Assembly: GCF_900176425.1 (NCBI RefSeq) | Contig: NZ_FWXS01000009.1 | Location: 1-64,000, forward strand | DNA: 64,000 bases | Direction of reading: 5' to 3' | Source of the DNA: Moheibacter sediminis | Lineage (GTDB): Bacteria > Bacteroidota > Bacteroidia > Flavobacteriales > Weeksellaceae | Shown here: piece after piece, positions 30,491-46,013 of the stretch | Layout of the letters: each line of letters opens with the position of its first letter | Position numbering within the stretch: position 1 is the stretch's first letter | Made by a program: the position numbers and the translations under genes | The notes under the pieces: generated by a model | Told to the model about the DNA's origin: nothing | Databases searched by the model: none | The model's input: the letters and a program-made list of their open reading frames with translations, nothing else

Positions 30491-30497
30491 CGCATTC

Positions 30498-30569: not shown

Positions 30570-30574
30570 CAACG

Positions 30575-32487: not shown

Positions 32488-32490
32488 AAC

Positions 32491-32538
32491 AAAAAAAGCA
32501 CCTCATTTCTGAAGTGCTTTCTGCGATCCGGACGGGAC
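32491..32538 (+). repeat. attL: a 48-bp direct repeat of the tRNA-Asp 3' end plus its terminator hairpin
   Basis: aaaaaaagcacctcatttctgaagtgctttctgcgatccggacgggac matches 45966-46013 at 47 of 48 positions. Confidence 0.85.
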
Positions 32539-32629
32539 TTTTGATTTTATTTTATATGACTAATATGCAGATATTTATGGTCTTAAATCTTAGTGATTAT
32601 ATCTATAAGTCCACCTTGTAGTAAAACCC

Positions 32630-33043
32630 CTAACATAATAGAGTAGATAATACCAATGAAATCACATCAGGGTTTCCATACACTATAGCTCTAGATTCCT
32701 TAAGAGTGTATAATTGTATTTCCTCATTTTGATAAGTGCTGAGGTTATCAGTTTCCTCTACCAATTCAAAATATTTTAGTAATTCCTGCTTTAGATTTGG
32801 ATCAATTTCATCTAAGAAGATAACTACAGCCTGTAGGAATTCATCACAATAAAATATCAGTTCAATTTTATCTGTAGAATGATTCAGAAATTTCTTTACT
32901 TCTTTTCCAACATAAATGTAACTGTCATATCCTTTTATCCTGTCAGGTAGAATTTCTAAGTCAAATTCCAGGTTTTCATATTCCATTCCTATAGGAAAGG
33001 GTAAAATATCTGTTTTCATAGTTTTAGGGTATAAAAAAACCAC
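32630..33043 (-). CDS. Hypothetical protein (island)
   Basis: ORF only. Confidence 0.3.
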   Translation of the reverse strand: MVFLYPKTMKTDILPFPIGMEYENLEFDLEILPDRIKGYDSYIYVGKEVKKFLNHSTDKIELIFYCDEFLQAVVIFLDEIDPNLKQELLKYFELVEETDNLSTYQNEEIQLYTLKESRAIVYGNPDVISLVLSTLLC

Positions 33044-33081
33044 TCAAGTAGAGTGGTTGAATTCTTTTTTAAGCAAACCAA

Positions 33082-33537
33082 TCAATATATAGAAATTGTA
33101 AGGACTCCCAAATCATTTTTCATTTCAAACAAAATTAACATCTTCCCATCTTTCCAAGCTTGATTACTTGTTATGATATTTGCTTTTTTATTTAAATGGT
33201 TTAAGATAAATTGAATTGTTTCTGTACTAATTATATTTCCTTTAATGTCAGGTGTAATAATAAAAATAATCTTCTCTATTGCCTTATACTTTAGATTATT
33301 AATAACCATTAACTTATCCTGATCAATTAATTTATATTGGGTTGTGAAATAATTCCCATCATCGGAATAATCTCCCCTTTCCAAACCATTGTGATAGGGA
33401 GGTTCTGTGTATGCTTCTAAATTATTACCAGCACACGTAAAGTCAATTAAATTTTCATATAGAAAAGTCCTTTCCATTTTGGATTGTCCAAAAGATAAAG
33501 TAGCAAATAGTATTGGTATTATAAATATTGTCTTCAT
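33082..33537 (-). CDS. Secreted hypothetical protein (island)
   Basis: MKTIFIIPILFATLSFGQS signal peptide. Confidence 0.35.
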   Translation of the reverse strand: MKTIFIIPILFATLSFGQSKMERTFLYENLIDFTCAGNNLEAYTEPPYHNGLERGDYSDDGNYFTTQYKLIDQDKLMVINNLKYKAIEKIIFIITPDIKGNIISTETIQFILNHLNKKANIITSNQAWKDGKMLILFEMKNDLGVLTISIY

Positions 33538-33544
33538 AATGTAC

Positions 33545-33970
33545 TTATTTTAGATTTACGAAAAAGGATAAAATTCTTTTTTCTGAATTCACTCCAACTC
33601 TACAATTTCCATTTTCATAATATTTGATGTCTTTGTAAGAGTAAGAATACACAAAATCTAGAGTAAGAATTATTTGTGTAAGTGAATTAAAAGCTTCTTT
33701 AGTAGGTTGATATACAAGACTGAACATTTCATCATTTCTAACTATTGAAATGTTTTCTTTGCCTTCTATACTTGTTTTGGAGTAACCTTTTTGATAATAA
33801 TTAGGTTCATCAGTGGTTTTTACATATTTGAACCCTTTAGAATTTAAATCTACTTCGATGTAGTTATAATCCTGCTTAGCTAAATAATCATTTAATTTTG
33901 AATAACTTAGGGATTGAGCATTTAAAAATACTGGAAGAAATAGAAGAAAAGAGTAAATTAATATTCTCAT
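33545..33970 (-). CDS. Secreted hypothetical protein (island)
   Basis: MRILIYSFLLFLPVFLNAQS signal peptide. Confidence 0.35.
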   Translation of the reverse strand: MRILIYSFLLFLPVFLNAQSLSYSKLNDYLAKQDYNYIEVDLNSKGFKYVKTTDEPNYYQKGYSKTSIEGKENISIVRNDEMFSLVYQPTKEAFNSLTQIILTLDFVYSYSYKDIKYYENGNCRVGVNSEKRILSFFVNLK

Positions 33971-33985
33971 ATTTTTGATTTTTAG

Positions 33986-34462
33986 TTAAAATTTTGTGCA
34001 GGTTTTAAACAATAAAAGACCTACTGCCATAGGAAGTAAGATTTTTATAAATGAATAAACTGTATAATTAAAAGCTTCAGTAGAAGCCCCCTTAAATTCA
34101 TCAATAACTTCTCTCACAGAATTTTTAGCCTGCTTCTTTGCATTTTCCATCCATTTTTTTAAAATTTCATCTTGAAATTGATATTCTGAATATTCATAAC
34201 CTTGTTTGGTCTTACTTGAAGCAGCTTCTTCAGATTGATGTGTATGGTAAAAATTGTCATACTCAACATCATATCTTTGTTTGGCTTCTTCATCTTTGAG
34301 AACTAAATAAGCCTCAACAATGTCCTGCATTTTTTGGGTTGTGTCTTTATTTGGGTTTTTGTCAGGATGCCATTTTTTACATTCTGTCCTATATCCATTT
34401 TTTATTTCATCAATTGTAGCATTTCTCCCTATACACAGAATAGAGTAATAATCTTTAAACAT
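33986..34462 (-). CDS. J-domain (DnaJ-like) protein with a C-terminal transmembrane helix
   Basis: DYYSILCIGRNATIDEIKNGYRTECKKWHPDKNP contains the HPD tripeptide of J-domains. The C-terminal IKILLPMAVGLLLF is hydrophobic. Confidence 0.6.
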   Translation of the reverse strand: MFKDYYSILCIGRNATIDEIKNGYRTECKKWHPDKNPNKDTTQKMQDIVEAYLVLKDEEAKQRYDVEYDNFYHTHQSEEAASSKTKQGYEYSEYQFQDEILKKWMENAKKQAKNSVREVIDEFKGASTEAFNYTVYSFIKILLPMAVGLLLFKTCTKF

Positions 34463-34661
34463 TTTTGTCTAAATTTCTATTATCTGTATCTTTCTTTGGC
34501 AAGTACTTCCAGACACCAATAATTCCAAAAATTATAATTGCACCAGGTAAAAGTCTTATAAGCCCAGTAGAGTCATTTCCAGATTCAGAAATGACAGCTT
34601 GGATAATTACTCCTATAATAACAACTGCAATGCTTAAAAGTATTTTCACTAATATTCTCAT
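34455..34661 (-). CDS. Small 2-TM membrane protein
   Basis: 68 aa, two hydrophobic helices; overlaps the J-domain gene by 8 nt. Confidence 0.3.
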   Translation of the reverse strand: MRILVKILLSIAVVIIGVIIQAVISESGNDSTGLIRLLPGAIIIFGIIGVWKYLPKKDTDNRNLDKNV

Positions 34662-34726
34662 AGTATCTAAATTTTAAAATTGCCATATATGGCATTTAAT
34701 TCAACAAATATAAAACATTACTTGAC

Positions 34727-34960
34727 TTGCCAAATATGTCAAGTATGGAAAAATCTGAAATTCTTAAAGCTGTAGGTAAGAAAATCAAGGAATTAAGGGA
34801 GTCTAAAGGCTTATCTCAGGTTGATTTGGTTGGTAAAATAGAGGGTAAAATTGATACTACTAATATCTCAAGAATTGAATCAGGAAGAACCAATCCTACC
34901 CTTTATACTTTACACAGAATAGCTACAGCTTTAGAGATTGACCTAAAAGAATTCTTTTAA
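34727..34960 (+). CDS. XRE-family helix-turn-helix transcriptional regulator
   Basis: KELRESKGLSQVDLVGKIEG...ISRIESGRTNPTLYTLHRIATALEI is a Cro/C1-type HTH. Confidence 0.75.
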   Translation: MPNMSSMEKSEILKAVGKKIKELRESKGLSQVDLVGKIEGKIDTTNISRIESGRTNPTLYTLHRIATALEIDLKEFF

Positions 34961-35286
34961 TTTCTTTTGGGAACATAAGTTTTGTTTCCATTACTATTAA
35001 TGTAATATTGCCCACCTTTAGGACCCGTATGGATAGTTTTTCCTGAACCATAATTTTTAGCTTCTACTGAGTAATCTTTTGGTTTTGTACCCACTTCACC
35101 AGTATAAAGGTTTATATTTCCTTTAGTGGAATAGTTGTCATGGTTGGTTTTATTGGTTTGAGTTTTGTAATACCCATCAATATAAGTTCCTGTGCTTGGT
35201 TTGTAATAACCAGTCTGATACCTAACCTGAGAAAATACTAAAGATGAAAAGAGAAAGAATGCTGTGATTAAAAGTGAATTTTTCAT
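34957..35286 (-). CDS. Small secreted protein, hypothetical
   Basis: Signal peptide MKNSLLITAFFLFSSLVFSQ. Confidence 0.3.
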   Translation of the reverse strand: MKNSLLITAFFLFSSLVFSQVRYQTGYYKPSTGTYIDGYYKTQTNKTNHDNYSTKGNINLYTGEVGTKPKDYSVEAKNYGSGKTIHTGPKGGQYYINSNGNKTYVPKRN

Positions 35287-35367
35287 ATTGCTATATTTTA
35301 ATTGTTATTTTTATAGCAAAAGTAAAATGAAGTTAATCTCTTCTATGAAAGTTGCAAATTTGCAACT

Positions 35368-36552
35368 CTAAATAAATGGGGGCTCATACACATCATCTGG
35401 GTCTATTTCATCATTTGAGCTATTATTATATATAAGAGGAATGTATTTTAAATCACTGCCAAAAACAGCTCCATCAATTATATAGTTTTTCGCATATGAT
35501 TCTTCCATAGCATTATAAAATGCTGATTTAATCCTTGAAATGTGAGTGAAAATGGTTTTATTACCCAATTCAGTTATATCTCTAACACTTTGATTCATCC
35601 TATCCAAATCATTTTGGTTAGATATATTAAGATAAAAGCTCATTAACTCCTTTTCGTGTTTCCAAAGCTCACTGATTCTTATACCTTCAGGATGATTGTA
35701 GAAGAGTGCATAGACTGCTTTTGAAAGAGAATTAAGTTTAATTTCCAAATTATTAAAGTATGGAATATAAATTTTGTAGTCATCATCAAATTTAACTCCA
35801 CCAATAAGGTTCAAATCAACCTCATCTGACAAATCTTCTAAGGTCTTTTTCAGCAAGGGTAAAATATATAACCATTTACCAGATGCTTTTAACGCATCAA
35901 TTTCTTTGTTTATAGAATTAATTTTATTTAAAGTCTCCTCATCCAGACTTTCATCAATAGCTCTTGCAAATTCCGGATTTACTCTTCTACGAGAATTGAA
36001 TAAATTCTCATCATTTATTAACTTACTTTTTGTCCCATAGTCAATTATAAATTGTTTAGGGCTTTCAACTCTATTTATTATATCTTCATTGGTGTATTGA
36101 ATTACGTGAATGAGAGAGTCATAACAAATTATAAATCCAGATTTTATATTGCCTTTATATCCTAAATATTCAAGGAGTAATTTATTGTCTTTAGCACAAG
36201 AAGAGAAGTATTTAAAATTATCTTTTTCCTTTGCCATTATAAGGTGGAAAAGTTGATGGCTACTGAAATGGATCTTTTCATTCAGATGTGGAATGAAATA
36301 AGAAATCAAATCTTCTGTATTATCAGGAAAATCTGTTCCTGGAAGAAAGGTAAAATTATAACCAGCTTCATTAAATTCTTTTACTATGGTATCATGATGT
36401 TCTTTATAATAAAGGTTTAACTGAAAGTTCCCAATCAGGTCAAACACTATTACTGTTTTATCTAATGATTCAATTTTTGAAAGAGATTGGTCAATCTGAT
36501 TTCTTCTGAAACTATCTACATAATACCCCAAGAATTTGAGTTCTTCTATCAT
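35368..36552 (-). CDS. Hypothetical protein (394 aa), island cargo
   Basis: ORF with no recognisable motifs. Confidence 0.3.
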   Translation of the reverse strand: MIEELKFLGYYVDSFRRNQIDQSLSKIESLDKTVIVFDLIGNFQLNLYYKEHHDTIVKEFNEAGYNFTFLPGTDFPDNTEDLISYFIPHLNEKIHFSSHQLFHLIMAKEKDNFKYFSSCAKDNKLLLEYLGYKGNIKSGFIICYDSLIHVIQYTNEDIINRVESPKQFIIDYGTKSKLINDENLFNSRRRVNPEFARAIDESLDEETLNKINSINKEIDALKASGKWLYILPLLKKTLEDLSDEVDLNLIGGVKFDDDYKIYIPYFNNLEIKLNSLSKAVYALFYNHPEGIRISELWKHEKELMSFYLNISNQNDLDRMNQSVRDITELGNKTIFTHISRIKSAFYNAMEESYAKNYIIDGAVFGSDLKYIPLIYNNSSNDEIDPDDVYEPPFI

Positions 36553-36974
36553 ACCTGATTTTATTCCAAATTTAAATTATTTGAACAAAAAAAACATTAT
36601 ATCCTAATACGTAACTACTCCATTGAATTAATCCGTTTTTAGATCTAAATCCGTATAAGTATTGGATTTAAACCCTGCAATCATTATAATGCAGATTAAA
36701 AAAAGGCTATAATATTATGTAGATGTATATTTTATATAGGTCTATTTAAGTATGATTTTCAGGGATTTTGTAATCTTTCACACACCTTAATCAAAACTGC
36801 AAGAATTGTAAACTTTGTAGTTTTTGCTAGTTTCATTTGAATTAAAAAGTGACAAAGTGACTTTTTTTGTCAAAACTTTTTTCTGTAGATGAAAAAATGA
36901 TTTATTTTAAGTAAAATCACATTCGTAGAAAAATACTTTTCGAAAAAAAGGTCACTTCGTCACTGGGTTAAGAA

Positions 36975-37397
36975 TTATACAAAAGCTTCATCATACACTC
37001 CATTTTCAGAAAAAACTGAAGCATCAGCTTTAATAGGTTTAGATTCACTTTGGTTTGTTTCTTCTGGTAAATAAACCCACCTGTGAGATAAGATAATTTC
37101 TTCTCCTGTTTCCTGCACTACATACTCATAAGGCTCACATTCCTGTTTCTCAATAGAGCCTGGAATTTGTGTTCCAATTAACCCTTTACAAGTTACCTCA
37201 TCAAATGTTGATGGTATAATAGCTTTTTTAGCTGTGGCATAAAACATTCCTGTAGCTTTTGATTGGGTCATTTCAATGCCACCCTGTAGCTCCAGTACGA
37301 AAAATGAAGTTTCATCATCCTTTAATCTTTCTTTGTAGTTAACAATTGTTACCATTGGTTTTAAAAATTTTGAGTTAAACATTTGTTCCAAACACAA
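36975..37397 (-). CDS. Hypothetical small acidic protein (island cargo)
   Basis: ORF only. Confidence 0.3.
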   Translation of the reverse strand: MCLEQMFNSKFLKPMVTIVNYKERLKDDETSFFVLELQGGIEMTQSKATGMFYATAKKAIIPSTFDEVTCKGLIGTQIPGSIEKQECEPYEYVVQETGEEIILSHRWVYLPEETNQSESKPIKADASVFSENGVYDEAFV

Positions 37398-37707
37398 TAG
37401 AATTTCTGAAGAAATAAATATTCAGCTATCACCTTGAAGTTTTATATTCCTGCCTGAAAAAATCTTTCTATATAATTTGGGTACGGGGAGTTCCCCATTC
37501 CTACATAAGTGCGGGTGTTTGTTGGAGGAAGAGAGCAAATGCACAACCCCTTCAAAAAATTTTATAAAAATTTCAGATTATGGTTTTCCGTAATGTTATA
37601 TCTTAAATAATTTTTACTTTTGGAAAGCAGCGCTATGTAATCCTCTCTTTTTAAGATGAAAACTATATTTATATTTTTAAATTCAACACCTATTAAGATA
37701 ATATTTT

Positions 37708-38739
37708 ATGATAATAAAGAACTTTTTTTTACATCATGTTGATGTAAGCAACAATAATGTTACACCAATTAATTTACAATTAAACCCTCAAAACTTGCAG
37801 GATTATGTTGAAGAGTTATTAAGTGAAATTATAGCAAACCCAAACAGGAGGATATATTCTTTCAAAGATGGTAATACTGAAGTGAAATCTTCATTACGCA
37901 AGATTTTAGAGGATAATACTGATGTGGAAAATATAACTGAATTAAATGCCAAAAGATTACTTGAAAAAGAGATAAATACTCAAGCGTGGATGACAAGCAG
38001 AAATATGTCTGTTGAAATTCAGAAAGGTAGTTTATTACATCTAAATTTTGACATTAATGGTACTAAACAAATAATTATATGTAAGGTTGAACATGATGAG
38101 ATTTTAAATGAGCTTAACTTTGAGAAAGTCAGAGGGCTAAATACAAAGAAAAAGGTTTTCAAAGCAATATTGATAATTTTTAATAATCGTGGTAAAATAT
38201 CAGAAAATTATGTTTTTGACAAACACAACAGCAAATATTGGTGGGATGATTTTCTTGAGTTACAACAGCAATATACTGATGATGACAATACTGAAAAATC
38301 ATTAAATGCCATAGATGCTACTCTTACACCTTTGAGAAATAAATTTTATGCTGACTACGTTATATTAAGAAATACTATCATTGGTTATTATAAAAACAAT
38401 GACAGCCTTAATTATTCAGACGTTATTTCCAATGTAGTCCAAAATTATGATCCAGTAAATGTTGACTTTCCTAAAGATGCACTAATAAATAAATTAAATG
38501 AGCTTCCTGCAAAAAAGGGATTTGATACACAGTTTTCCATTGTAAAAAAGAAAATAAATAAAAAAGTGAAGCATAGAATTAAACTAGCAAATAATCTATA
38601 TTTAAGTATGGATGATTTTGTAGACAATTTAAGAAATATTCTAAAGCCCTGGAAGGATGAACAAGGAAACAAATATGTGCAAATATTATCTTCTGAAGGT
38701 TTTGATAAAATTGAAGATTTAATGAGAGAAAATGGTTAG
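37708..38739 (+). CDS. Hypothetical protein (343 aa), first gene of an overlapping two-gene cargo module
   Basis: Its stop overlaps the start of the next gene (ATGgttag), suggesting translational coupling. Confidence 0.35.
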   Translation: MIIKNFFLHHVDVSNNNVTPINLQLNPQNLQDYVEELLSEIIANPNRRIYSFKDGNTEVKSSLRKILEDNTDVENITELNAKRLLEKEINTQAWMTSRNMSVEIQKGSLLHLNFDINGTKQIIICKVEHDEILNELNFEKVRGLNTKKKVFKAILIIFNNRGKISENYVFDKHNSKYWWDDFLELQQQYTDDDNTEKSLNAIDATLTPLRNKFYADYVILRNTIIGYYKNNDSLNYSDVISNVVQNYDPVNVDFPKDALINKLNELPAKKGFDTQFSIVKKKINKKVKHRIKLANNLYLSMDDFVDNLRNILKPWKDEQGNKYVQILSSEGFDKIEDLMRENG

Positions 38740-40144
38740 TTCTTTAATACAATTATTCACACCAAATCAGATTCTAAGCAATATTGATAATTTTAAGCAA
38801 TATGAATACATTGCTTATGTAGGTGTAAATGATAAAACAAATTCACTAAACAAATCTTTTTATGATGATGTAAATGTTTATTTTAATTCTATACAATATG
38901 ATTGGTCATTAGAAATAGAAGAAACAGGTTATTCAATATCTCAAAACAGTTTTGTTGATATAGAATTTGAAGAATATATTGATACTTCAAATCTCAAACT
39001 AACTATCAGAGTATTCAAATCAACTAACAATAGTATTGTAATATTTAATGAGAGTGTATTTTTTGAAACGTTGAATAAAATGACTTTAAAGAGTATTTTA
39101 TTGACTTTTCAACAAATTTCAAAGCCCATATTAATTACTAATGAATTTTCAGAAAATTCTCAAAAATCAAACTTAATAGGTTATAATACAGGTGTTAATA
39201 ATTCAAAAAATCAAGAAATAAGTTTTCAGTGCCTTTTTTATAATTATTCAGAATTTAAATTTGCTCCTGAAAATTTTTCATTCAGTGATTATGAAAAGCA
39301 AGATGATTTTTGCAAAGTGATTAAAAAATTACATTATGTCTATTTGTTGATTTATTTATTTGATGTTTCAGAAATTAGAGAGGATAAAATTTTCTTGAAG
39401 CTCAAAGGACATAAAACCTATGAATATGAATTGGAATTTTCAACCCTAAAAACTGAAAGCATTAATGAATACAAAAAAATATATGAGTGGGTTTATTCTG
39501 ATAAAGGCAAAATTGAAGATAAGTTAGGAATAGCAAGAAATATAATTGGATTTTACTTAAAAAAGGATGATGTAAGAATTGACAACAGGACATTTCCTTC
39601 TATCCTATCAGCTAATCAGCTTTATATAAAAGGGAATTTGACAAAATATTTGGATTCTCGAAATAAAATATATGAGCAGGTTGACCAAGTAACAAGTAAA
39701 ATAAATACCTCTCTGGATACATTCTTAGGAAATTTTCAAAAATCTGTCTTTGTTTTTGTGAGTTTTTATTTAACCGCATTTGTAGTAAAAATATTTAACA
39801 AATTAGATGTTTCAACAGCAATTAGTAAAGAGGCTACCTTATTTGGTCTAGGCTTATTGCTACTTTCGCTTTTTTTTATGATTTTTTCATTAATTATTTT
39901 AAACTCAGATTTAAATAGAGTGAAGGAAAAATATTTTTTGGTGAAAACAAGGTTTGAAGATATTCTAAACAAAGATGACGTAAATAAAATTCTAAATAAT
40001 GATTCAGAGTTTAATAAAGACATTATGTTTTATGAGAAAAAAAGATGCAACCTTCTGTTTTTATGGATAATCACAATAATTATTCTTACTTGCATATTAT
40101 TTAGTACTTCAGAATATATAAATTTCAAATATCTTTCTCTGTAA
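38732..40144 (+). CDS. Hypothetical protein (470 aa) with three C-terminal TM helices: candidate membrane effector
   Basis: A soluble N-terminal region of about 330 aa, then VFVFVSFYLTAFVVKIF, LFGLGLLLLSLFFMIFSLIIL and LLFLWIITIIILTCILF. Confidence 0.35.
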   Translation: MVSSLIQLFTPNQILSNIDNFKQYEYIAYVGVNDKTNSLNKSFYDDVNVYFNSIQYDWSLEIEETGYSISQNSFVDIEFEEYIDTSNLKLTIRVFKSTNNSIVIFNESVFFETLNKMTLKSILLTFQQISKPILITNEFSENSQKSNLIGYNTGVNNSKNQEISFQCLFYNYSEFKFAPENFSFSDYEKQDDFCKVIKKLHYVYLLIYLFDVSEIREDKIFLKLKGHKTYEYELEFSTLKTESINEYKKIYEWVYSDKGKIEDKLGIARNIIGFYLKKDDVRIDNRTFPSILSANQLYIKGNLTKYLDSRNKIYEQVDQVTSKINTSLDTFLGNFQKSVFVFVSFYLTAFVVKIFNKLDVSTAISKEATLFGLGLLLLSLFFMIFSLIILNSDLNRVKEKYFLVKTRFEDILNKDDVNKILNNDSEFNKDIMFYEKKRCNLLFLWIITIIILTCILFSTSEYINFKYLSL

Positions 40145-40174
40145 ATCCACCCCACTTTAGCAGGGTGGATTAAC

Positions 40175-41212
40175 TCAACTCAAAAACCAATGATAACCAG
40201 AATTACCACTGATAGCTTTACAAATACTCTGATTAAACTCAAAAGCATTTAAGTTTCTCTCTAAAAAGGTATCAATGTAGCTGGATTTATTGGCTTGAGT
40301 GAATAGATTGTACACATTCCACAGATTGATATTACTATTATCATCCTTACAGAAACTATCATCCTGATAATAATCTTTAGCAATGGTATTGAAGTGCCCA
40401 TCTGTAAACATCAATTCAGGAATTTCAGATTTCAGTTTTTTAGGTAAATGCTGATATAACCTAGCTCTACCAACTAAAGTAGCAAACTGGTGTTCTGTAA
40501 GAAATTGCTCTGATAGACCTTTCATCTGGTTTAGGTGGGTTTCTGCTTGGTAGTTTTGGATAATTTCCAAAATTTTAGCTTGTAACTCCTGATAGGATGT
40601 AACCCTTAAATCTTCCACAAAACCATCACTTGAAACACATAGATTGCAACATACCATATTCTGAAACCCAATGAAGAACTTGAATTTTTCAAATGATTTC
40701 CTGTTGTACAGATTTTCCTGATTATATGCTCTTACCCCTCCTATAGTCAAGGATAATTCATTCCCATTGATATTTTCAGAAATACTTGGAATTCTGATGA
40801 TAAAAGCCATTCTTTCATAATAAATGGTTTTCTCATGTTCCAACAAGTCTTTAGCCTGCTTATGAATTGCATCTGGAATCCTGCCTTTAATCTGATGAGA
40901 AACCCTAATTTCAGGTAATTCTATACTGTGATGAGGAAATGCTTTTGAAATGGAATTTTGAGCAATTTCAATAAATTCCTGATGTGCCAGAGTCTTTTCA
41001 TTATCCTTGCTGAAAACAGGAATGATACAATCTTTCTTTAAGTGCAACAAATCCACTTCTTCTGTATTGGCTTCAATGAAAGGTTTTGAATTTTGAGCTT
41101 TTAATCCTTCTACAACCACAGGGCTACTATCTCTAGAACCCACAGGGAGCAGCTCCAAGGTATCTTGCTTCTTCATTATGTTGGGAGTTTTTTCAAATGT
41201 GATGCTGTCCAT
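40175..41212 (-). CDS. Hypothetical protein (345 aa), first gene of the island replication-type module
   Basis: Overlaps the upstream ATPase gene by 20 nt. Confidence 0.3.
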   Translation of the reverse strand: MDSITFEKTPNIMKKQDTLELLPVGSRDSSPVVVEGLKAQNSKPFIEANTEEVDLLHLKKDCIIPVFSKDNEKTLAHQEFIEIAQNSISKAFPHHSIELPEIRVSHQIKGRIPDAIHKQAKDLLEHEKTIYYERMAFIIRIPSISENINGNELSLTIGGVRAYNQENLYNRKSFEKFKFFIGFQNMVCCNLCVSSDGFVEDLRVTSYQELQAKILEIIQNYQAETHLNQMKGLSEQFLTEHQFATLVGRARLYQHLPKKLKSEIPELMFTDGHFNTIAKDYYQDDSFCKDDNSNINLWNVYNLFTQANKSSYIDTFLERNLNAFEFNQSICKAISGNSGYHWFLS

Positions 41213-42182
41213 TTTGAGAAATGTTTTTAGGGTTAGTTAACTGAATCAAAAGTGATTTCTTGGCTTCAAAACCGGGTCTTAAAGTATCCTGAAAATCAGG
41301 ATATTTCTTATACAGTTTCAGAAGCTCTGCCATAGAGTTACATTGCTGAATTTCTTCATAAACCTGCTCAGAAGTAACTTCTGCTACATTAGAGCCTGTA
41401 TTACACCAATCCAAAATCCTTTTCCCTGTACCTTGATTAATCACAAATTCAGGTTTACCCATAAATAATCCTGTCCTGTCTTTGGATGAGGTAGCAAAGT
41501 GCTTAATATCCACATCAAATACAAGGGTAAACTCATAATCCAAGCCATCTTTCTGAACTGCTTTCAATCCAACTTTTTCAGGAATAAACTTTCCATCCTT
41601 TTGATTCAGCACATAATCCTGCTTTGTCCTCATTGTAGCTATGATATGAGCATTGGATTGAAGGATTTTATCAGTAAAGGCTTTTTGTCTTGGAGTAACT
41701 TTAGCCCAATTGGTAAATGAATTACCTGCCAGTTTAGAATGAAAATCCAATAGCTCATCCCAACAATGAGAAATAGAATCAATGATAATCACTTCCATAG
41801 CAGCCTTTTCACACACCTCTAGAGCTTCAATGTATTTTTCAGGTGTAAAAGGTGGTGTCATTGAAAGCACATTGTAATTACCCAAATGGGCATAAAGGTC
41901 AGCACTTCCATTCTCTGTGTCTATAATAGCTACTTTCGATAAGTTACCATTTGTAAGTCCTTGTGCAAGGAGCAGGCTTGAATAAGTCTTGCCCGAGCCT
42001 GCACTTCCTTGAAGAGCCATTTTAATTTTAGCTCTTTTTCTTTCTGATTGTCTTAGTTGCATAATTTTACATTTAAAGTTCGTATAAATAAAATGGGGCT
42101 TTCGTTTAGAAGGCCCCATTGTGTTATGAAAAAACAGAAATATTAAACATTGCAGAACTTGCAGGTTTTGCAGTTTCTGCAA
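41193..42182 (-). CDS. RecA-like P-loop ATPase (AAA_24/Sak4-like)
   Basis: MALQGSAGSGKTYSSLLLAQG is a Walker A motif; AIIDTENG follows. The true start is probably the internal MQLRQSE or MALQG. Confidence 0.5.
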   Translation of the reverse strand: MQKLQNLQVLQCLIFLFFHNTMGPSKRKPHFIYTNFKCKIMQLRQSERKRAKIKMALQGSAGSGKTYSSLLLAQGLTNGNLSKVAIIDTENGSADLYAHLGNYNVLSMTPPFTPEKYIEALEVCEKAAMEVIIIDSISHCWDELLDFHSKLAGNSFTNWAKVTPRQKAFTDKILQSNAHIIATMRTKQDYVLNQKDGKFIPEKVGLKAVQKDGLDYEFTLVFDVDIKHFATSSKDRTGLFMGKPEFVINQGTGKRILDWCNTGSNVAEVTSEQVYEEIQQCNSMAELLKLYKKYPDFQDTLRPGFEAKKSLLIQLTNPKNISQNGQHHI

Positions 42183-42190
42183 ATTAAAAA

Positions 42191-43546
42191 TTATTTTCTT
42201 TTTACTTTTTTATAAGTTCCATGACTTATTTTTTCTAAAATTTTATCATTCCACTTTTTTAAAATTTCGTCAAAAGTCCTTTCTGGAATTCCAACTTTTT
42301 GTGCTATCTCAAGTCCTCTGCTTCTCTTGAATTCGTCTGGGAGCTTACTTAATAAATCCCTTTCTTGCATTGTCATTGAAACAGCATTTTTTTCAAACTG
42401 ATCGAAAACGGATAATGAATGATCTAATAAGATTTTTATAATTCTCATTGCTGCTTTGACAGTTTTATCTTCAGCATAAAAAATAACATCTCCTTCAACT
42501 AGTTCTTCTTGTTTTTCCAAAACAGTAAACAGACAAATTAATCTAAAAGCGATCAATCCTAATCTTTTGACTACAGGAATGAAATCGTCTTTTCCTGTCT
42601 CTTGGATAATGCTATTTGCCAATGACATTCTTTCTTGGAAGTAATCCCATTGCTTTTTAGTCATTCTGACTTCTACGCTATTTTGTTTTTTCAGCTTTTC
42701 ATACAATTCTTTAATTTCTTTGGACTTTTCATCCATTAATTTATCATAACTTATCCTACTAGCAGTTGGACTGACATCTTTCCAACCGCCGGCTTCTTCA
42801 AAGGAATAATAAATGAACCTACTGAATAATCCGTTTTCTTTAGACTCGATCAAAGGTCTGACTTGATTAGGTGTTCCTGATAAAATCATTGAAATTTTAG
42901 GTTTCTTGATTTCAAAAAATCTATCCTCAGTAGATCTGCTGATTGATACAGTCTCATGATGGAAGGCTTTTCTGAGCAAATCAGAGAAGTTTCCCCAATC
43001 TTGCTTTAACATATTAGAAAGCGAATCTGCCTCGCTCTCAAATATGATTAAATCATCCTCAGCATTCTCCAAATGAGTATATAATTTGGACGCACTTGTA
43101 TTTCCAGGTACAACCTTTATTTGAAATTTGGGTTCATTTACTCCCTCATTATTTTCAGAATTCCTGTATTCCGCTATTTTTCTTTTGCTCTCCTCTTTGA
43201 TTTTCTCATGGATTGGTTCAACCAATATTTTTGACCATTCCATCACACCCTTTCCTGAAGCTGGAGGAGCAATAATAAATACATATAAATTAGGACTATA
43301 ATTTCTGGAATCATAAATTCCATATACATTTGACATACATCCACTTATAACTCCAACACACGATAATAAAATAATATCTCTCTCCCTTCCTTGAAATTCA
43401 AGGCAAATCTCTTTTAATAGTTCTGGCAAGTCTTCATATACCTCTTCTGGTATTAGATTTTTATGACTTGCAGTCATGGCAAGATCTGGCGAACTCCCAA
43501 ACCTTGCTTTTTTACTTTCTTCTATTTCTTTAATCATATTTTTCAA
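42191..43546 (-). CDS. DUF3987/VirE-like P-loop protein (primase-associated C-terminal-domain-like), typical of Bacteroidota mobilisable elements
   Basis: IIAPPASGKGV is P-loop-like. Size and context next to the AAA_24 ATPase and the integrase support the call. Confidence 0.4.
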   Translation of the reverse strand: MKNMIKEIEESKKARFGSSPDLAMTASHKNLIPEEVYEDLPELLKEICLEFQGRERDIILLSCVGVISGCMSNVYGIYDSRNYSPNLYVFIIAPPASGKGVMEWSKILVEPIHEKIKEESKRKIAEYRNSENNEGVNEPKFQIKVVPGNTSASKLYTHLENAEDDLIIFESEADSLSNMLKQDWGNFSDLLRKAFHHETVSISRSTEDRFFEIKKPKISMILSGTPNQVRPLIESKENGLFSRFIYYSFEEAGGWKDVSPTASRISYDKLMDEKSKEIKELYEKLKKQNSVEVRMTKKQWDYFQERMSLANSIIQETGKDDFIPVVKRLGLIAFRLICLFTVLEKQEELVEGDVIFYAEDKTVKAAMRIIKILLDHSLSVFDQFEKNAVSMTMQERDLLSKLPDEFKRSRGLEIAQKVGIPERTFDEILKKWNDKILEKISHGTYKKVKRK

Positions 43547-43696
43547 ATAATTAATTTCTGTTTCTCCATAAAAAAGTTTAAGAGATTGGGCTTTCCAATC
43601 TTCTTCTGCAAATTTCCGAACGAAACATGCCTGAAAAAGAATTGAAACAGAAAACCTTAAAAAATGGCAGATTTCTGTTTCAAAATCATAAAAACT

Positions 43697-44560
43697 TTAC
43701 TTTATTTCGATTGAGGGAGGGCGTTCTATATAATGTTTGAGATTCTTAATATCAACATTATCATAGATTTGAGAAATGTTTCCTATAGAGGGGTTATTGA
43801 CAAATGGAGCTGAATTATTTATTGGAACTTCAAACAAAGCAAAAAATGCTGCTATAAATTCTAAAGTAGATTTTTTCAGGGCTTTATCAATTCTAGGTCT
43901 ATTGGGATTATTTTCAGAATAGATAAAATTATAGATTGCATTAATAAATTCTACTTTAACATTTTCTGAAAATTTATCTGGTTTTATTTGAAGCGTCTTG
44001 GATAAGATGCCTTCTTTTTGTTGAACATAATTTTCTCTAGTCAACAGGAATTTATCACAAAGCGCTCCGTAAATGGTTTTCAATACCAATGGATTTTTAA
44101 TATTGATATTATCTCCTGTATCTATCTTGATTGTAATTGAAGGTAATTCTTCACTATGGCTAGTAGAAAAAAGATATTTTCTTAAAGCTCTAAACAGACC
44201 TTTTATATCTTCTTTTTCTAGAGCAAGGGTTTTTAAATCCTCATCATTTTCACTCCCTATATTGTTACAGTAGGCGTATTGTAATGCGCAACCCAAAGTA
44301 ATAAATTCTTCACGAAGTGAAACAAGATCAATATCTTCCAAAGCTTCATCCAATAATTTTGCTGTCTGAGTTGGAATCTGTAGGGAAGAATAAGTGCCTC
44401 TGAAAAAATTGGTTAATTCTTTAAAAGACTCTATTGAACCTATATCCTCCAAAGAAGAAACTTCGTACATATCAAATTCAATAGAGCCCTCGGGTAGATT
44501 GATGTATAGACTATCTTGATATGTTTTCCATTGATACATTATAAAGAAATAATACTGCAA
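43697..44560 (-). CDS. Hypothetical protein (island)
   Basis: ORF only. Confidence 0.3.
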   Translation of the reverse strand: MQYYFFIMYQWKTYQDSLYINLPEGSIEFDMYEVSSLEDIGSIESFKELTNFFRGTYSSLQIPTQTAKLLDEALEDIDLVSLREEFITLGCALQYAYCNNIGSENDEDLKTLALEKEDIKGLFRALRKYLFSTSHSEELPSITIKIDTGDNINIKNPLVLKTIYGALCDKFLLTRENYVQQKEGILSKTLQIKPDKFSENVKVEFINAIYNFIYSENNPNRPRIDKALKKSTLEFIAAFFALFEVPINNSAPFVNNPSIGNISQIYDNVDIKNLKHYIERPPSIEIK

Positions 44561-44601
44561 TTAATGCAAATTCTGCAAAACTTGCAAGGCAATGATATAT
44601 T

Positions 44602-45816
44602 TTACTTTTTATCCAACTTTTTACTCAAGTTACGGATATGTTCACTAACCTTTTTCTGAACCACCTTTCCATAATGCTCCTGCGTGATGGTGATTTTAGA
44701 ATGTCCAAGTAATTCTGACACAATCTCCATAGGCACATCATTATACAGTAATACTGTAGTAGCAAAGGTTTTCCTTGCAATATGATGAGTCAAATTTTTT
44801 TCAATCCCAACTATTCCTGCTATCTCTTTCAGATAAGAATTGAACTTAGAATTACTAGCTTTTGGTAACACACGTACATCATCATATTCTTGGTATTTCT
44901 CTATGATAGATAGAGCTTTAGGAAGAAGAGGAATTGAAATTTGCTTTTGAGTCTTTTTTCTCTGCATTTGAATCCATTGATTTCCATCAAACCCAGTTAC
45001 AATGTGTTTCTTCTCAAGATTGTACATTTCAGTAAATGCTAATCCTGTATAACAGCAGAAAACAAAGAAATCCCTGATTTGTTCAACTCTTGTGATAGGG
45101 AAATTGTGATTTTCAAGCCTTTCCAATTCCTCAGCAGTCAGATATACAACTTCTTTTTTAGGTCTTGCTAATCTGTGGAGTAGGAAAGGGTCTTTGTCTA
45201 AGAATCCCATAGATACAGCCATTTTGACTACTTTCTTGGTTCTTTGTAAACTTTTGAAAGTTGTACTTGCCTGAAACTTCTTCTCTGTCTTGAGGAAATA
45301 TTCAAACTCCTGAAGGAAGTTTTCATTCAAATCCTTTAGCAGGTAATCATTCTTTTTCAACTGTAATTTCAGGAACTCAGCAATATGGTTCTTGGTAAGG
45401 TTGTACCTGCTCCAACTTAATTGAGCATACTCAATTCCTATAAGTTTCTCCATTTTGTTGTTATGTATTTCAAATGCTTCTAACAAGGTCTTTTCAGCTT
45501 TTATGTTCTCTCCTTTGTACTTCAGGTAAATATCATTTACATCAAAGTTTAAAGAGTTCACTTGCAGATACAAAAAAGCCTGACTAATTTCATTCTTAAT
45601 CAGGCTTAACTGTGTATTGATATAATTGTTCTCATCATTGGGTGGATGAGCTTTCTGCTGTCCATTTTTCCAATGGTTAGGATTTACAAATAATCCAGTA
45701 GAAAATATCTTTCTCACCCCACTTAATGTAATTCTACATCTGATAGGGGCTTTGCCTTGTCTGTTAAGTTTGGTTCTATTTATTAAGAAAAGTATTTTTA
45801 AATCTATTGCATTCAT
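44602..45816 (-). CDS. int: Tyrosine-type site-specific integrase
   Basis: The C-terminal LTHHIARKTFATTVLL...LLGHSKITITQEHYGKV (R, HxxR, catalytic Y) is the phage-integrase catalytic-domain pattern. It is adjacent to attR and the tRNA. Confidence 0.85.
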   Translation of the reverse strand: MNAIDLKILFLINRTKLNRQGKAPIRCRITLSGVRKIFSTGLFVNPNHWKNGQQKAHPPNDENNYINTQLSLIKNEISQAFLYLQVNSLNFDVNDIYLKYKGENIKAEKTLLEAFEIHNNKMEKLIGIEYAQLSWSRYNLTKNHIAEFLKLQLKKNDYLLKDLNENFLQEFEYFLKTEKKFQASTTFKSLQRTKKVVKMAVSMGFLDKDPFLLHRLARPKKEVVYLTAEELERLENHNFPITRVEQIRDFFVFCCYTGLAFTEMYNLEKKHIVTGFDGNQWIQMQRKKTQKQISIPLLPKALSIIEKYQEYDDVRVLPKASNSKFNSYLKEIAGIVGIEKNLTHHIARKTFATTVLLYNDVPMEIVSELLGHSKITITQEHYGKVVQKKVSEHIRNLSKKLDKK

Positions 45817-45836
45817 AATATTAAAGAGATTAAAAA

Positions 45837-45890
45837 GGGGGGTGTACCCGAGTTAAAAAATGGTGTACCCGCAGGTGTACCTGAGAAGTA
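45837..45890 (+). promoter_or_regulatory. Three direct GGTGTACC repeats between the integrase gene and attR: candidate arm-type recombinase or RDF binding sites
   Basis: ggtgtacccgag...ggtgtacccgcaggtgtacctgag. Confidence 0.35.
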
Positions 45891-45965
45891 AGAAATGGGA
45901 GGAAAAATAAGGAAGTATGATTTAAGAGCTAAATCTCTGTAACGCCTTTGTTATAGTATAAAAAC

Positions 45966-46013
45966 AAAAAAAGCACCTCATCTCTGAAGTGCTTTCTGCG
46001 ATCCGGACGGGAC
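45966..46013 (+). repeat. attR: a 48-bp direct repeat overlapping the 3' end of the intact tRNA-Asp
   Basis: See attL. Confidence 0.85.

Follow-up and report, generated by a model that had tools for sequence, protein, structure and literature searches.

Positions 32483–46014 of the 64-kb window (the whole stretch of Moheibacter sediminis DNA that was analysed) hold an intact integrative element inserted at the 3′ end of a tRNA-Asp gene. Judging from its gene content and order, this island belongs to a large Flavobacteriales family of compact islands, with relatives in gut Bacteroidota, in which a fixed phage-like backbone appears to be accompanied by anti-phage defence genes exchanged at one slot. 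In the M. sediminis island the slot holds a two-gene cassette resembling the PANGU type II system. We consider this reading probable as regards the island and its family, the hotspot for defence genes and the PANGU-like cargo taken together; the route of transfer is weighed separately below. We found no name for this DUF3871/AAA_24 island family in the literature searched.

Island boundaries and integration machinery

The following features define the ends of the island:

32483..32539 (−): attL, a displaced tRNA-Asp 3′ end (its last 17 nt) together with the terminator that originally stood downstream of the gene in the host
45958..46014 (−): attR, the tRNA-Asp 3′ end and terminator brought by the island, which complete the functional tRNA
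45998..46072 (−): tRNA-Asp(GTC), intact, the integration target (ARAGORN; Rfam tRNA, 68.5 bits)
44602..45816 (−): tyrosine integrase (Pfam Arm-DNA-bind_5, Phage_int_SAM_5 and Phage_integrase; phrog_1 integrase)
45841..45881 (+): GGTGTACC three times as direct repeats, between attR and the start codon of the integrase gene

In agreement with the initial annotation, which had described an element bounded by 48-bp repeats carrying the tRNA-Asp 3′ end and its terminator, the sequences at 32491–32538 and 45966–46013 are identical at 47 of 48 positions, and they can be extended to 57 nt (32483–32539 and 45958–46014, 55/57 identical), giving an island of 13,532 bp from attL through attR. The right copy covers the final 17 nt of tRNA-Asp(GTC) and a 13-bp-stem terminator downstream of the tRNA, and the same terminator hairpin was detected at the left copy. 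Because the island brings its own tRNA 3′ end and terminator, the tRNA remains whole after insertion. Both mismatches between attL and attR lie on the terminator side, which would place the crossover within 45983–46014. attL adjoins the stop codon of the flanking WYL gene, and its assignment is also backed by alignment to the tRNA-Asp loci of relatives.

The island differs from its flanks in G+C content (0.304 vs 0.356 and 0.375), and when the source run was assembled independently from short reads, the contigs broke exactly at both repeats and the island came out as a separate 13,503-bp contig. In relatives the tRNA-Asp locus, compared as initially suggested, holds either another variant of the island or none (L004, L006 and L002); L002, the second-closest genome fragment, has no island of the DUF3871/AAA_24 family. 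With a single M. sediminis assembly, no excised circle, same-species empty attB or transfer event was seen.

The integrase sits beside the tRNA that attR overlaps, with the three direct repeats in between, just as first noted. It is of the IntN1 type, with the arm-binding N-terminal architecture of Bacteroidota enzymes, and no excisionase was recognised among the island ORFs with Pfam or PHROGs. GGTGTACC occurs exactly three times in the window, all at 45841–45881, against a chance expectation of ~0.32 copies (three were reached in 1 of 100 shuffles), and seven related islands carry analogous sets of two or three short repeats at the equivalent place. The repeats are thus candidate arm-type integrase binding sites.

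A conserved backbone across Flavobacteriales

Next to the integrase come the helicase slot and two backbone genes:

43697..44560 (−): o287 (gene call of 280 aa), neighbour of DUF3987 in the helicase slot
42191..43546 (−): DUF3987 P-loop helicase/primase-associated protein (Pfam DUF3987, E 1.5e-56; PHROG DNA helicase and primase families)
41193..42182 (−): AAA_24 RecA-fold ATPase, phage Sak4/RecA-like (Pfam AAA_24, E 2.5e-18; phrog_1366, E 8e-76)
40175..41212 (−): DUF3871 protein, the signature backbone gene, with a DUF932/TIGR03299-like fold

Pfam supports the ATPase and DUF3987 assignments made at the outset, which had passed over the adjacent DUF3871 gene. The AAA_24 protein is ~40% identical to RecA-like proteins of Erwinia, Acinetobacter and Pseudomonas phages, and by homology it is a backbone replication/recombination gene. 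The structure model of the DUF3871 protein is of moderate confidence (pLDDT 63). The helicase slot holds DUF3987 here and a DEAD/ResIII helicase or uncharacterised proteins in other islands, so that DUF3987 is only one of several alternative occupants. For o287 we found one weak homologue, adjoining a DUF3987 gene in another locus (L093), and no family match in Pfam, PADLOC or PHROGs. AAA_24 and DUF3871 genes also occur on human-faecal fragments deposited as 'Bacteriophage sp.'.

The same gene order (tRNA, integrase, helicase slot, AAA_24, DUF3871, variable slot, o140, XRE regulator, small proteins) recurs in 80 Flavobacteriales genome loci. Of 69 related loci, 66 have an integrase and 62 a tRNA immediately upstream. 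The 18 related islands that are delimited by repeats span 11.1–16.1 kb, although the 10-kb flanks taken per locus censor the upper end of the family's size range. Seven different tRNA species are occupied across genera; Riemerella and Epilithonimonas islands, for example, sit at tRNA-Met and tRNA-Asn. Polaribacter also carries a family island, one genome has two family islands that differ in slot content, and multiple copies and tandem arrays exist. In the M. stercoris island, which targets tRNA-Asn, AAA_24 and DUF3871 are 86–88% identical to ours and the integrase only 52%, pointing to an integrase module that is swapped independently of the replication module.

The distal part of the island contains mostly small genes and two non-coding features:

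37365..37534 (−): o140 leader, 170 nt, conserved and non-coding, with two hairpins
36975..37355 (−): o140, small acidic backbone protein called as 126 aa, marking the far edge of the cargo slot
36848..36964 (unstranded): inverted repeat with 35-nt arms and four GTGAC motifs, in the o394/o140 gap
35368..36552 (−): o394, 394 aa, present in only a few related islands
34957..35286 (−): 109-aa protein with a signal-peptide-like N-terminus (phrog_29674, function not annotated, E 7e-13)
34727..34960 (+): XRE/Cro-C1-type HTH regulator (Pfam HTH_3, E 3e-11; PHROG transcriptional repressor families)
34455..34661 (−): 68-aa two-helix membrane protein, its ORF overlapping the J-domain gene by 8 nt
33986..34462 (−): J-domain protein (Pfam DnaJ, E 1.6e-19) with a C-terminal membrane helix (hydrophobic segment 133–151)
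33545..33970 (−): o141, small protein with an N-terminal hydrophobic segment (residues 3–21)
33082..33537 (−): o151, small protein with a signal-peptide-like N-terminus
32630..33043 (−): o137, small acidic protein, a recurrent distal backbone gene

Most related islands also have three of these: o140, the XRE regulator and o137. Homologues of o140 (50–67% identical) were found in 51 of the 80 loci, always downstream of the variable slot, with no Pfam, PHROG or PDB sequence match. Copies of the XRE regulator (41–78% identical) occupy the equivalent position in most related islands, making it a candidate island repressor, and homologues of o137 lie at the distal end of many (30–59% identity), with no match in Pfam, PHROGs or PADLOC. 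By contrast, o394 and o141 recur in only a few: o394 has positionally equivalent counterparts of 31–34% identity in islands of Epilithonimonas, Myroides and Riemerella but no family match in Pfam, PADLOC or PHROGs, and o141 shows 38% identity to ORFs of Epilithonimonas islands. The single homologue of o151 is weak (L098), and no family match was found in Pfam, PADLOC or PHROGs. The 68-aa protein has hydrophobic segments and weakly matches a PHROG 'membrane protein' moron family (E 0.0016). Both the XRE regulator and the J-domain membrane protein had been called initially, and HTH_3, DnaJ and the membrane helix bear out those calls. The J-domain protein gave no tblastn match in related loci and, being absent from related islands, is probably accessory.

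The structured leader upstream of o140 was a side finding of the island analysis. It is 71–89% conserved at the nucleotide level across genera, with shared motifs in the alignment, hairpins in individual sequences, a strand bias in the folding z-score and covariation in hairpin 2. No Rfam family matched it, and we regard it as a candidate structured RNA or cis element. The arms of the inverted repeat at 36848–36964 are 80% complementary, with no conservation among relatives; it is a candidate operator or origin.

The variable slot and its two-gene cassette

Between DUF3871 and o140 lies a hypervariable region whose length ranges from 0.28 to at least 9.7 kb across loci, and whose 313 ORFs fall into 224 clusters. 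In other islands, slot ORFs match PADLOC models for DruE (E = 0), AriA (1e-62), PtuA, GajA/GajB, Old, PbeA and AbiLi, as well as type I restriction and specificity subunits and type II and IIG enzymes; Druantia, restriction-modification, PARIS, Septu and Gabija proteins are thus all represented. At the family level these matches strongly support the early suggestion of defence cargo on such islands. The ~6 kb that had been set down as unannotatable is not all cargo: only 37708–40144 lies in the variable slot, which contains nothing but the following pair:

37708..38739 (+): cargo gene 1, YejK/NdpA-like nucleoid-associated protein (NAP), Pag2A-like
38732..40144 (+): cargo gene 2, 470-aa membrane (TM) partner, Pag2B-like, overlapping gene 1 by 8 nt

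The only significant PDB match of the AF2 model of the first protein is E. coli YejK (9be2, E 1.5e-5), and an identical protein is named 'nucleoid-associated protein [Moheibacter sediminis]' at NCBI. The second has three C-terminal membrane helices (hydrophobic segments 337–355, 364–382 and 437–455), and its family comprises 1010 representative clusters. The NAP+TM pair is conserved in three phyla (Bacteroidota, Bacillota and Gammaproteobacteria). For both proteins hhalign gave 100% probability against the Providencia and E. coli pairs, although identity to the enterobacterial pair is only 25–30%. In Providencia the pair is carried by a P4-like satellite, with the Toprim primase gene on one side and Psu/Ogr-Delta on the other, and a related cassette is found in Agathobacter on a relaxase-bearing element. 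None of the island's proteins matched the PADLOC 2023 models.

The architecture of the cassette matches that of PANGU type II (Pag2A/Pag2B), an abortive-infection system described in a preprint (bioRxiv 10.64898/2026.04.06.716658): both are two-gene operons in which a YejK-like NAP is paired with a protein that has a soluble domain at its N-terminus and a membrane domain at its C-terminus, and both are spread across phyla and neighbour other defence genes. PANGU has only sporadic representation in Bacteroidota (same preprint). The E. coli homologue is presumably PANGU-Ecu, and the cassette is likened to PANGU by description rather than by PANGU-Ecu sequence. The N-terminal domain of our partner is only mildly acidic (pI 5.1), so that a DNA-mimic role is no more than a candidate. 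Homology, slot position and the preprint together suggest that the cassette serves in defence.

Comparison with known mobile elements

A close parallel is offered by the P4-like phage satellites of Enterobacterales, which at roughly 10–15 kb also place a slot for exchanged defence genes after a replication module; the Providencia element even shares the cassette. P4 integrates at a tRNA, with its integrase beside it. Rousset and colleagues are said to have described, in 2022, a defence-gene hotspot in P4. Unlike these satellites, the island has no homologue of the alpha primase (Toprim), Psu, Sid, Delta/Ogr, Cox or epsilon in Pfam searches; its backbone consists instead of a helicase, AAA_24 and DUF3871, its host phylum is Bacteroidota, and it has no known helper phage.

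The NBU1/NBU2 mobilisable transposons of Bacteroides share the Bacteroidota integrase with its arm-binding N-terminal domain. NBU elements, of ~10–12 kb, integrate into tRNA 3′ ends with the same integrase type; a Mob relaxase and an oriT are their defining features, and conjugative transposons mobilise them. No island ORF matched a relaxase family, and to our knowledge the AAA_24 and DUF3871 module is not part of NBU elements.

PICIs carry packaging or redirection genes. PICMI/PICI satellites and marine virion-encapsidated elements (VEIMEs) resemble the island in being small, integrase-bearing and devoid of capsid genes, with a DUF3987-type primase/helicase, whereas PICMIs need AlpA and sit next to fis, neither of which applies to the M. 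sediminis island. Protection of the host against competing phages is a further property of PICMIs (PMC10803314), and some of the marine elements, likened to the island by description, are integrated in Flavobacteria genomes (PMC9618062). Within the same bacterial family, the 10K genomic island of Riemerella anatipestifer has an IntN1_C-like integrase and a 53-bp att repeat that lies by a tRNA (Arg) and has a hairpin-like terminator sequence at its end; its integrase and attP suffice for integration and excision, and spontaneous circles were detected (PMC6764341). It differs in content, with Fic, AntA/AntB antirepressor domains and hypothetical proteins, and its ORF table lists neither DUF3871 nor an AAA-type ATPase (PMC6764341).

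Mobility and proposed mode of action

As the initial annotation had it, capsid, terminase and conjugation genes are missing: no ORF of at least 60 aa matched capsid, terminase, portal, tail, relaxase or coupling-protein families in Pfam or PHROGs, nor was a packaging or capsid-redirection gene recognised with either. Because excisionase, packaging, capsid-redirection and relaxase genes all went unrecognised, we infer both the mobility of the island and its route. Carriage in helper phage particles is our leading candidate for transfer between cells, held tentatively and for this step alone.

A more specific version, in which the island is a phage satellite induced by a helper, replicated and packaged in helper capsids, with DUF3871, o140 and the leader as a helper-sensing or hijacking module, seems possible, though short of probable. 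It would account for the phage-type replication genes (AAA_24, a DUF3987 or DEAD helicase and a DUF932-like protein), the absence of structural genes in Pfam and PHROGs, the multiple copies and tandem arrays, the hotspot downstream of the replication module as in P4-like satellites, the same cassette in one such satellite, and DUF3987 being the marker primase of the PICMI model (PMC10803314). The narrow size range (11–16 kb) also fits, but is censored by the 10-kb flanks; the 'Bacteriophage sp.' fragments bearing AAA_24 and DUF3871 likewise speak for it, but are 4 kb, unverified and unannotated; and membership in IMG/VR is a software prediction only. No small terminase, capsid-size redirection gene, AlpA, Psu/Sid/Delta or pac/cos was recognised in the island, and no helper phage is known.

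We think it unlikely that the island is instead an integrative mobilisable element moved, like NBU, by conjugative-transposon machinery through an unrecognised relaxase or oriT alone. The arm-binding architecture of the integrase, the size of 10–15 kb and the related cassette on the Agathobacter element would suit such an origin, and o394, o287 or o140 could conceal a novel relaxase. DUF932-like proteins, whose fold DUF3871 shares, are common on conjugative elements and plasmids. However, no island ORF matched relaxase, MobC, coupling-protein or type IV secretion families, the gene calls of four related island loci list none, and AAA_24 is typical of phages rather than conjugative elements.

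Less likely by far is a fixed or decaying prophage or island remnant whose family resemblance reflects vertical inheritance. The missing excisionase, the lack of direct evidence of excision and the L002 fragment without a family island could be taken that way, but every backbone ORF is intact, the att repeats still agree at 55/57 positions, seven tRNA species serve as insertion sites for related islands across genera, the M. stercoris comparison argues for independent integrase swapping, and two different members share one genome while others form tandem arrays. Finally, although the repeat contains a terminator hairpin, a sequence type that can recur, a harmless duplication of the tRNA terminator around ordinary chromosome, which the initial annotation had named as the outcome that would overturn its reading if content did not vary between strains, is refuted by the variable content of the locus in relatives and by the same architecture at other tRNAs in at least 60 genomes, besides the adjoining integrase and the fall in G+C from ~0.36 to 0.30.

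For the integrative island with defence cargo that we favour, we propose that the three GGTGTACC repeats serve the integrase as arm sites and that it carries out recombination inside the perfectly identical 32-bp stretch, which includes the tRNA end. Excision would probably proceed without a separate excisionase, for which the Riemerella 10K island, excised by its integrase alone at a tRNA-plus-terminator att site, offers a precedent (PMC6764341). The XRE protein would hold the island silent, and on induction the DUF3987 helicase, the AAA_24 ATPase and DUF3871 would replicate the circle. The cassette, if it acts as reported for PANGU type II, would respond to degradation of the chromosome by a phage: the DNA-bound sensor would be released and would activate the membrane effector, and the infection would be aborted.

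Boundaries of the island and its integrase

The island is bounded by a 57-nt direct repeat (32483-32539 and 45958-46014) that was located by a repeat finder and whose two copies are identical at 55 of 57 positions by direct count; direct counting also reproduced the 47 of 48 matches of the shorter repeat reported in the initial annotation (32491-32538 versus 45966-46013). The features at the right-hand end are:

45998-46072, minus strand: intact tRNA-Asp(GTC) (ARAGORN; Rfam, 68.5 bits)
44602-45816: tyrosine integrase, 404 aa, with Arm-DNA-bind_5, Phage_int_SAM_5 and Phage_integrase domains

The right copy of the repeat consists of the final 17 nt of tRNA-Asp plus the 40 nt downstream, which form a 13-pair terminator hairpin that is also present in the left copy, in agreement with the earlier description of the repeats as the tRNA-Asp 3′ end and its terminator. 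The 17-nt tRNA 3′ fragment displaced to the far end of the island within this repeat is a hallmark of Islander-type elements, as is the position of the integrase, which had been correctly recognized beside attR and starts 181 bp from the intact tRNA-Asp. Both mismatches between the repeat copies fall on the terminator side, which under the standard attB × attP model would confine strand exchange to the 32 perfectly identical bp that include the tRNA end. The G+C content of the island is 0.304, versus 0.356 and 0.375 for its flanks, and a short-read assembly of SRR5851933, which matches the window at 100%, is broken at both repeats, with the island as a contig of 13,503 bp. The initial observation of an integrated island is thereby confirmed in full, and its general reading was right.

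The sequence GGTGTACC occurs three times in the 64-kb window, and all three copies lie in a single 41-bp stretch in the gap that separates the start of the integrase from the repeat, where three direct repeats had been noted; about 0.32 copies would be expected by chance, and three were reached in 1 of 100 shuffles. A set of two or three short, AGGTnnCC-like direct repeats lies immediately upstream of the integrase in seven related islands too, with a different sequence in each. Such island-specific sequences at a recurrent position fit candidate arm-type sites whose sequence changes along with the arm-binding domain of the integrase. Our search for similar arm-type sites near attL found none, and no excisionase-like HTH protein was found in the island. 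A precedent is the Riemerella 10K island: its att site is of the same style, and its integrase acts alone in integration as well as in excision (PMC6764341), which makes integrase-only excision plausible for our island by analogy.

The tRNA-Asp locus in relatives and the host flank

The thioredoxin gene that adjoins tRNA-Asp is identical in several metagenomic relatives, and the DNA on the other side of the tRNA varies among the related genomes (relatives other than M. sediminis) that we compared, as expected for an Islander-type site. One related locus (L004, 82% nucleotide identity) carries a different island variant, in which an 85%-identical integrase is followed by a DEAD-box helicase rather than by the island protein o287 and DUF3987. 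Two others are without an island of this family: in L006 (89%) the tRNA and a single terminator copy are followed by unrelated DNA, and in L002 (97%) the similarity ends exactly at the tRNA 3′ end. Because the content at tRNA-Asp differs among these three loci, the repeat is tied to variable content, the opposite of the common tRNA-terminator duplication that the initial annotation had considered as a counter-explanation.

At the other end, a gene for a WYL/WCX-domain regulator (31471-32487, plus strand) ends exactly at attL and separates the island from a cluster of five tRNAs, one of which is a second tRNA-Asp (30341-30412). WYL/WCX is the domain pair of BrxR/CapW-type regulators of defense systems. 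A WYL gene beside tRNA-Asp was not seen in the relatives sampled, and an exact-sequence look-up of the protein matched only the source run, SRR5851933. The same observation takes in 30258-30656 on the minus strand. Elsewhere in the host flank (24183-26665, minus strand), the gene for an RtcB RNA ligase adjoins that for an RlaP nucleotidyltransferase, an RNA-repair pair, and is followed by the gene for a Band_7 protein, all of which resemble ordinary genes of the host.

A family of DUF3871 islands with a conserved backbone

Homologues of the YejK-like nucleoid-associated protein (NAP) encoded in the island led us to islands with the same gene order, at tRNA-Met in Riemerella anatipestifer and at tRNA-Asn in Epilithonimonas vandammei. 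The M. sediminis genome itself contains, at another place, a second such island (L057; SRR5851933 contig 62, 1-15755), with identities to the first of 80% for AAA_24, 78% for DUF3871, 74% for the XRE protein, 60% for o140 (a 126-aa protein) and 58% for the integrase. The genes between its DUF3871 and o140 are entirely different from those in the window. They encode a 1135-aa PF27260 (Y4jQ) protein, a response-regulator-like protein and others.

A DUF3871 profile scan of one genome per species gave 487 loci, of which we analyzed the best 80, all from Flavobacteriales. Most of these share with the window the order tRNA, integrase, helicase slot, AAA_24, DUF3871, variable slot, o140, XRE. For the 69 loci with enough upstream DNA, an integrase lies within 6 kb of DUF3871 in 66, and a tRNA lies just upstream in 62 (Met 29, Asn 13, Val 10, Asp 4, Ser 3, Ala 2 and Arg 1). 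The distance from DUF3871 to o140 among the best 80 of the 487 loci has a median of 7.5 kb, with extremes of 283 bp and more than 9.6 kb, and the 18 islands that could be delimited by a tRNA-end repeat are 11.1-16.1 kb long, the upper bound being censored by the 10-kb flanks. In the window and about ten further loci, the helicase slot is occupied by a DUF3987 protein; its two other kinds of occupant are a DEAD/ResIII helicase of 700-830 aa and 460-500-aa proteins that match no family. For the closest related island (L064, from Moheibacter stercoris, 4785-15996), AAA_24 and DUF3871 are 86-88% identical to the window's, while the integrase is 52% identical and targets tRNA-Asn; judging by these sequences, the integrase/att module appears to be swapped separately from the replication module.

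The DUF3871 family as a whole is larger still, with more than 7256 clusters at E ≤ 1e-10, and DUF3871 is accompanied by AAA_24 and integrases in 40 IMG/VR contigs, many of them from human gut samples. Two family members stand in tandem in L067 and in L016/L017 (IMG/VR contig 2847593706_000001); in the latter, the same partial 3′ end of a tRNA, with its terminator, stands in front of each member, a pattern indicative of repeated integration at one att site. Three human gut IMG/VR loci (L044, L045 and L054, about 1-5900) have three to four integrase-like genes in a row a few kb upstream of DUF3871, resembling the invertible shufflon loci of Bacteroides restriction systems. As far as the literature could be searched, it holds no name for this island family; the sole paper there that mentions DUF3871 is unrelated, and a transductome preprint has no bearing on the islands either.

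The domain assignments made initially for AAA_24, DUF3987, the XRE regulator and the J-domain protein all agree with our family matches. AAA_24 is ~40% identical to RecA-like/Sak4-like proteins of cultured Erwinia, Acinetobacter and Pseudomonas phages; DUF3987, one marker primase family in the model for PICMI satellites (PMC10803314), matches PHROG helicase and primase families; and the XRE protein matches phage repressor families. From family membership, we infer backbone roles in replication, repression and excision. The predicted structure of DUF3871 (pLDDT 63, pTM 0.66) has no convincing structural neighbor in the PDB; its sequence matches viral DUF932, DUF945 and “phage/plasmid-like protein TIGR03299” proteins over ~300 columns (E 1e-5 to 1e-3), which links it to a fold common on mobile elements. 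Sequence searches of the PDB with DUF3871, the NAP profile and o140 gave no match, and an NCBIfam scan of the island proteins gave weak integrase-type matches only. At 33986-34661 (minus strand), the gene for the membrane-anchored J-domain protein overlaps that for a 68-aa two-helix membrane protein by 8 nt. This pair has no counterpart in related islands and is possibly a second accessory cassette.

The island is therefore a member of a large, sharply defined family, and most of its “unknown cargo” is backbone: of the 6 kb initially described as unannotatable cargo, the cassette in the variable slot is true cargo, and the remainder is mostly backbone that recurs in related islands. The known kind to which it belongs is the tRNA-integrated defense island; what is new is this backbone and the host phylum.

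The variable slot as a defense hotspot

The slot ORFs of at least 120 aa from the 80 loci (313 in all) form 224 clusters at 30% identity, and 180 cluster representatives were scanned against PADLOC. Among the matches listed are a full-length Druantia DruE (E = 0), PARIS AriA (1e-62), type I restriction and specificity subunits, type II and IIG enzymes, Septu PtuA, Gabija GajA and GajB, and Old, PbeA, AbiLi and mad genes. That such islands ferry defense cargo, as had been supposed from the single example, thus holds across the family, and judged from these matches the DUF3871–o140 interval is the true cargo slot and a defense hotspot.

A PANGU-like cassette in the slot

In the window, the slot is occupied by two genes with a G+C content of 0.258:

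37708-38739, strand opposite to DUF3871: cargo gene 1, YejK-like NAP, 343 aa
38732-40144, strand opposite to DUF3871: cargo gene 2, 470-aa partner, overlapping gene 1 by 8 nt

The sole significant PDB match (Foldseek) to the NAP model (pLDDT 78) is E. coli YejK (9be2; E 1.5e-5, probability 1.0), and a 100% identical M. sediminis entry bears the NCBI name “nucleoid-associated protein”. The partner has a mildly acidic N-terminal domain of ~330 aa (pI 5.1, net charge -8) and three C-terminal hydrophobic segments within residues 337-455. Homologues of the pair are found in 30 of 5426 complete E. coli genomes, where they are annotated “nucleoid-associated protein” and “hypothetical protein”; in strain NCTC86 (L147, 6787-9554) they lie beside recombinase and integrase remnants. 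Both window proteins align to an E. coli pair, a NAP and a 572-aa protein, with an hhalign probability of 100% (E 7e-43 to 5e-39).

PANGU systems are two-gene operons that encode a YejK-like protein and an effector, and in type II, from an E. coli strain, the partner of the NAP joins an acidic, DNA-mimicking N-terminal domain, reported to bind the NAP, to a membrane domain at its C-terminus; type II is reported to act by abortive infection, protection requires both genes, and the PANGU NAP departs the nucleoid once phage T4 degrades the chromosome (bioRxiv 10.64898/2026.04.06.716658, April 2026). Our cassette shares with type II both the YejK-like NAP and the bicistronic arrangement, here with overlapping ORFs, with a C-terminally membrane-anchored partner. 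Given this architecture, which we compared with the published description, and the homologous E. coli pair, the window cassette is very likely a member of PANGU type II. The 2023 PADLOC models gave nothing significant for ten island proteins (one match, at 0.005), as expected since PANGU was described later; the PADLOC run that had been proposed as a check drew a blank on these ten proteins and gave many defense matches in the slots of related islands. A Kiwa-like reading of the pair, as a membrane sensor plus a DNA binder, was dropped because there was no PADLOC match and YejK was the only significant fold match in the PDB.

The pair occurs together in the same slot in islands of Polaribacter, Pseudofulvibacter and a Flavobacterium, and also in Agathobacter, on an integrase- and relaxase-bearing element beside a DNA methylase and an HNH protein. 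In Providencia (L145/L146, 4965-7590), the homologues (hhalign probability 100% for both, E 1e-43 and 2e-41) belong to a P4-like satellite, in which they are bordered by the Toprim primase on one side and Psu/Ogr-Delta on the other, the position of the P4 defense hotspot. A profile of the 470-aa protein matched 1010 representative clusters among 1.84 billion proteins. Nothing was found by tblastn with the NAP against phage records or with the partner against plasmids, and the NAP profile matched a single distant locus in IMG/VR. These findings place a PANGU-like NAP–membrane cassette in Flavobacteriales and show it to be common to very different carriers: a P4-like satellite, a Firmicutes mobilizable element and the DUF3871 islands.

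A conserved leader upstream of o140

The 170-nt leader of o140 (37365-37534, minus strand) is 71-89% identical in nucleotide sequence across genera; the neighboring proteins are 50-65% identical. The alignment contains the fixed motifs ACCCCCAC and UUUCAGGCAG, a loop G(G/U)UGAUAG and, directly before the start codon, AACUCAAAAA. RNAalifold predicted no pairs from the raw MAFFT alignment, in which the hairpins are misaligned, and we used per-sequence folds and a hand-specified helix in its place. Hairpin 1 folds in all 31 sequences where it was located (-4 to -12 kcal/mol), with at least four unrelated stem sequences. Hairpin 2, specified by hand as a 7-pair helix, has 81.8% paired cells versus 67.2% in shuffles and 28 cells changed on both sides versus 9.1 expected, values that were each reached by none of 500 shuffles; its covariation score is 0.366 versus at most 0.14 for slid controls, and ten sequences contain U:G pairs that work only on the o140 strand. 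The folding z-score of the whole leader is -2.05 for the sense and -0.99 for the antisense strand, and Rfam gave no match. Given the blank RNAalifold result, we regard the case for a structured leader as suggestive rather than conclusive. It could be a regulatory leader RNA, an origin, a packaging signal or a cis element of the island family. Nearby, between o394 (another island protein) and o140, lies an inverted repeat with 35-nt arms and four GTGAC motifs (36848-36964), which has no conserved counterpart in related islands and is a candidate operator or origin.

Possible routes of transfer

Neither Pfam nor PHROG matched capsid, terminase, portal, tail, lysis, relaxase or coupling proteins among the island ORFs, in agreement with the absence of capsid, terminase and conjugation genes claimed initially. 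Lacking virion structural, terminase and lysis genes in its 13.5 kb, the island does not have the makeup of a prophage. It could instead be a phage satellite moved by a helper phage, a reading to which we give substantial but less than even weight: the phage-type replication genes, the narrow size range of the islands, their tandem and multiple copies and the parallel with the P4 hotspot all point this way, whereas the island fits none of the satellite types with which we compared it. P4-like satellites are characterized by alpha primase (Toprim), Psu, Sid, Delta/Ogr and Cox/epsilon genes, and the Toprim, Psu, Ogr_Delta and Derepression families, all present in the Providencia P4-like element, have no match in any island ORF; the integrase and DUF3987 of PICMI are present but AlpA (PF05930 or PF12728) and fis are not; and the small terminase, redirection and capsid families of PICIs and capsid-forming PICIs are not matched in Pfam or PHROG. 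Conjugative mobilization would call for an unrecognized relaxase or a bare oriT and seems unlikely; unlike NBU-type elements, the island has no match to a relaxase or mobilization family. That it is an immobile remnant is very improbable. The rest of the probability falls to an active island with some other route.

The Riemerella 10K island was checked as a member of the same family and rejected. A 4.2-kb unverified “Bacteriophage sp.” record from human feces in Mexico (MT839478.1; L063, 1836-3765) also has AAA_24 and DUF3871 side by side, with 59% and 50% identity to the genes in the window; if particles had been enriched in that sample, this would be a hint that a related element is encapsidated.

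We know of no helper–satellite system described in Bacteroidota. It is possible, and we put this forward tentatively, that the DUF3871 islands, which are present in hundreds of Flavobacteriales genomes as well as in gut Bacteroidota, are the first phage-satellite family to be recognized in this phylum, with DUF3871, o140 and the leader RNA as a helper-sensing and hijacking module and the slot as a main point of exchange for anti-phage systems.

Implications

How defense genes are exchanged in Bacteroidota is poorly charted, in gut species as well as in pathogens of fish and poultry (Flavobacterium, Riemerella, Chryseobacterium, Elizabethkingia). In islands whose backbone is fixed and whose variation is concentrated in a single slot, the interval from DUF3871 to o140 can be read as a list of candidate defense systems, and the ~224 slot protein clusters, many without a name, come from only 80 genomes. 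The pairs of integrases and att sites cover seven tRNA species and might be turned into integration tools for Flavobacteriales, a use already made of the Riemerella 10K island. Should the islands turn out to be satellites, helper–satellite biology would be opened up in Bacteroidota.
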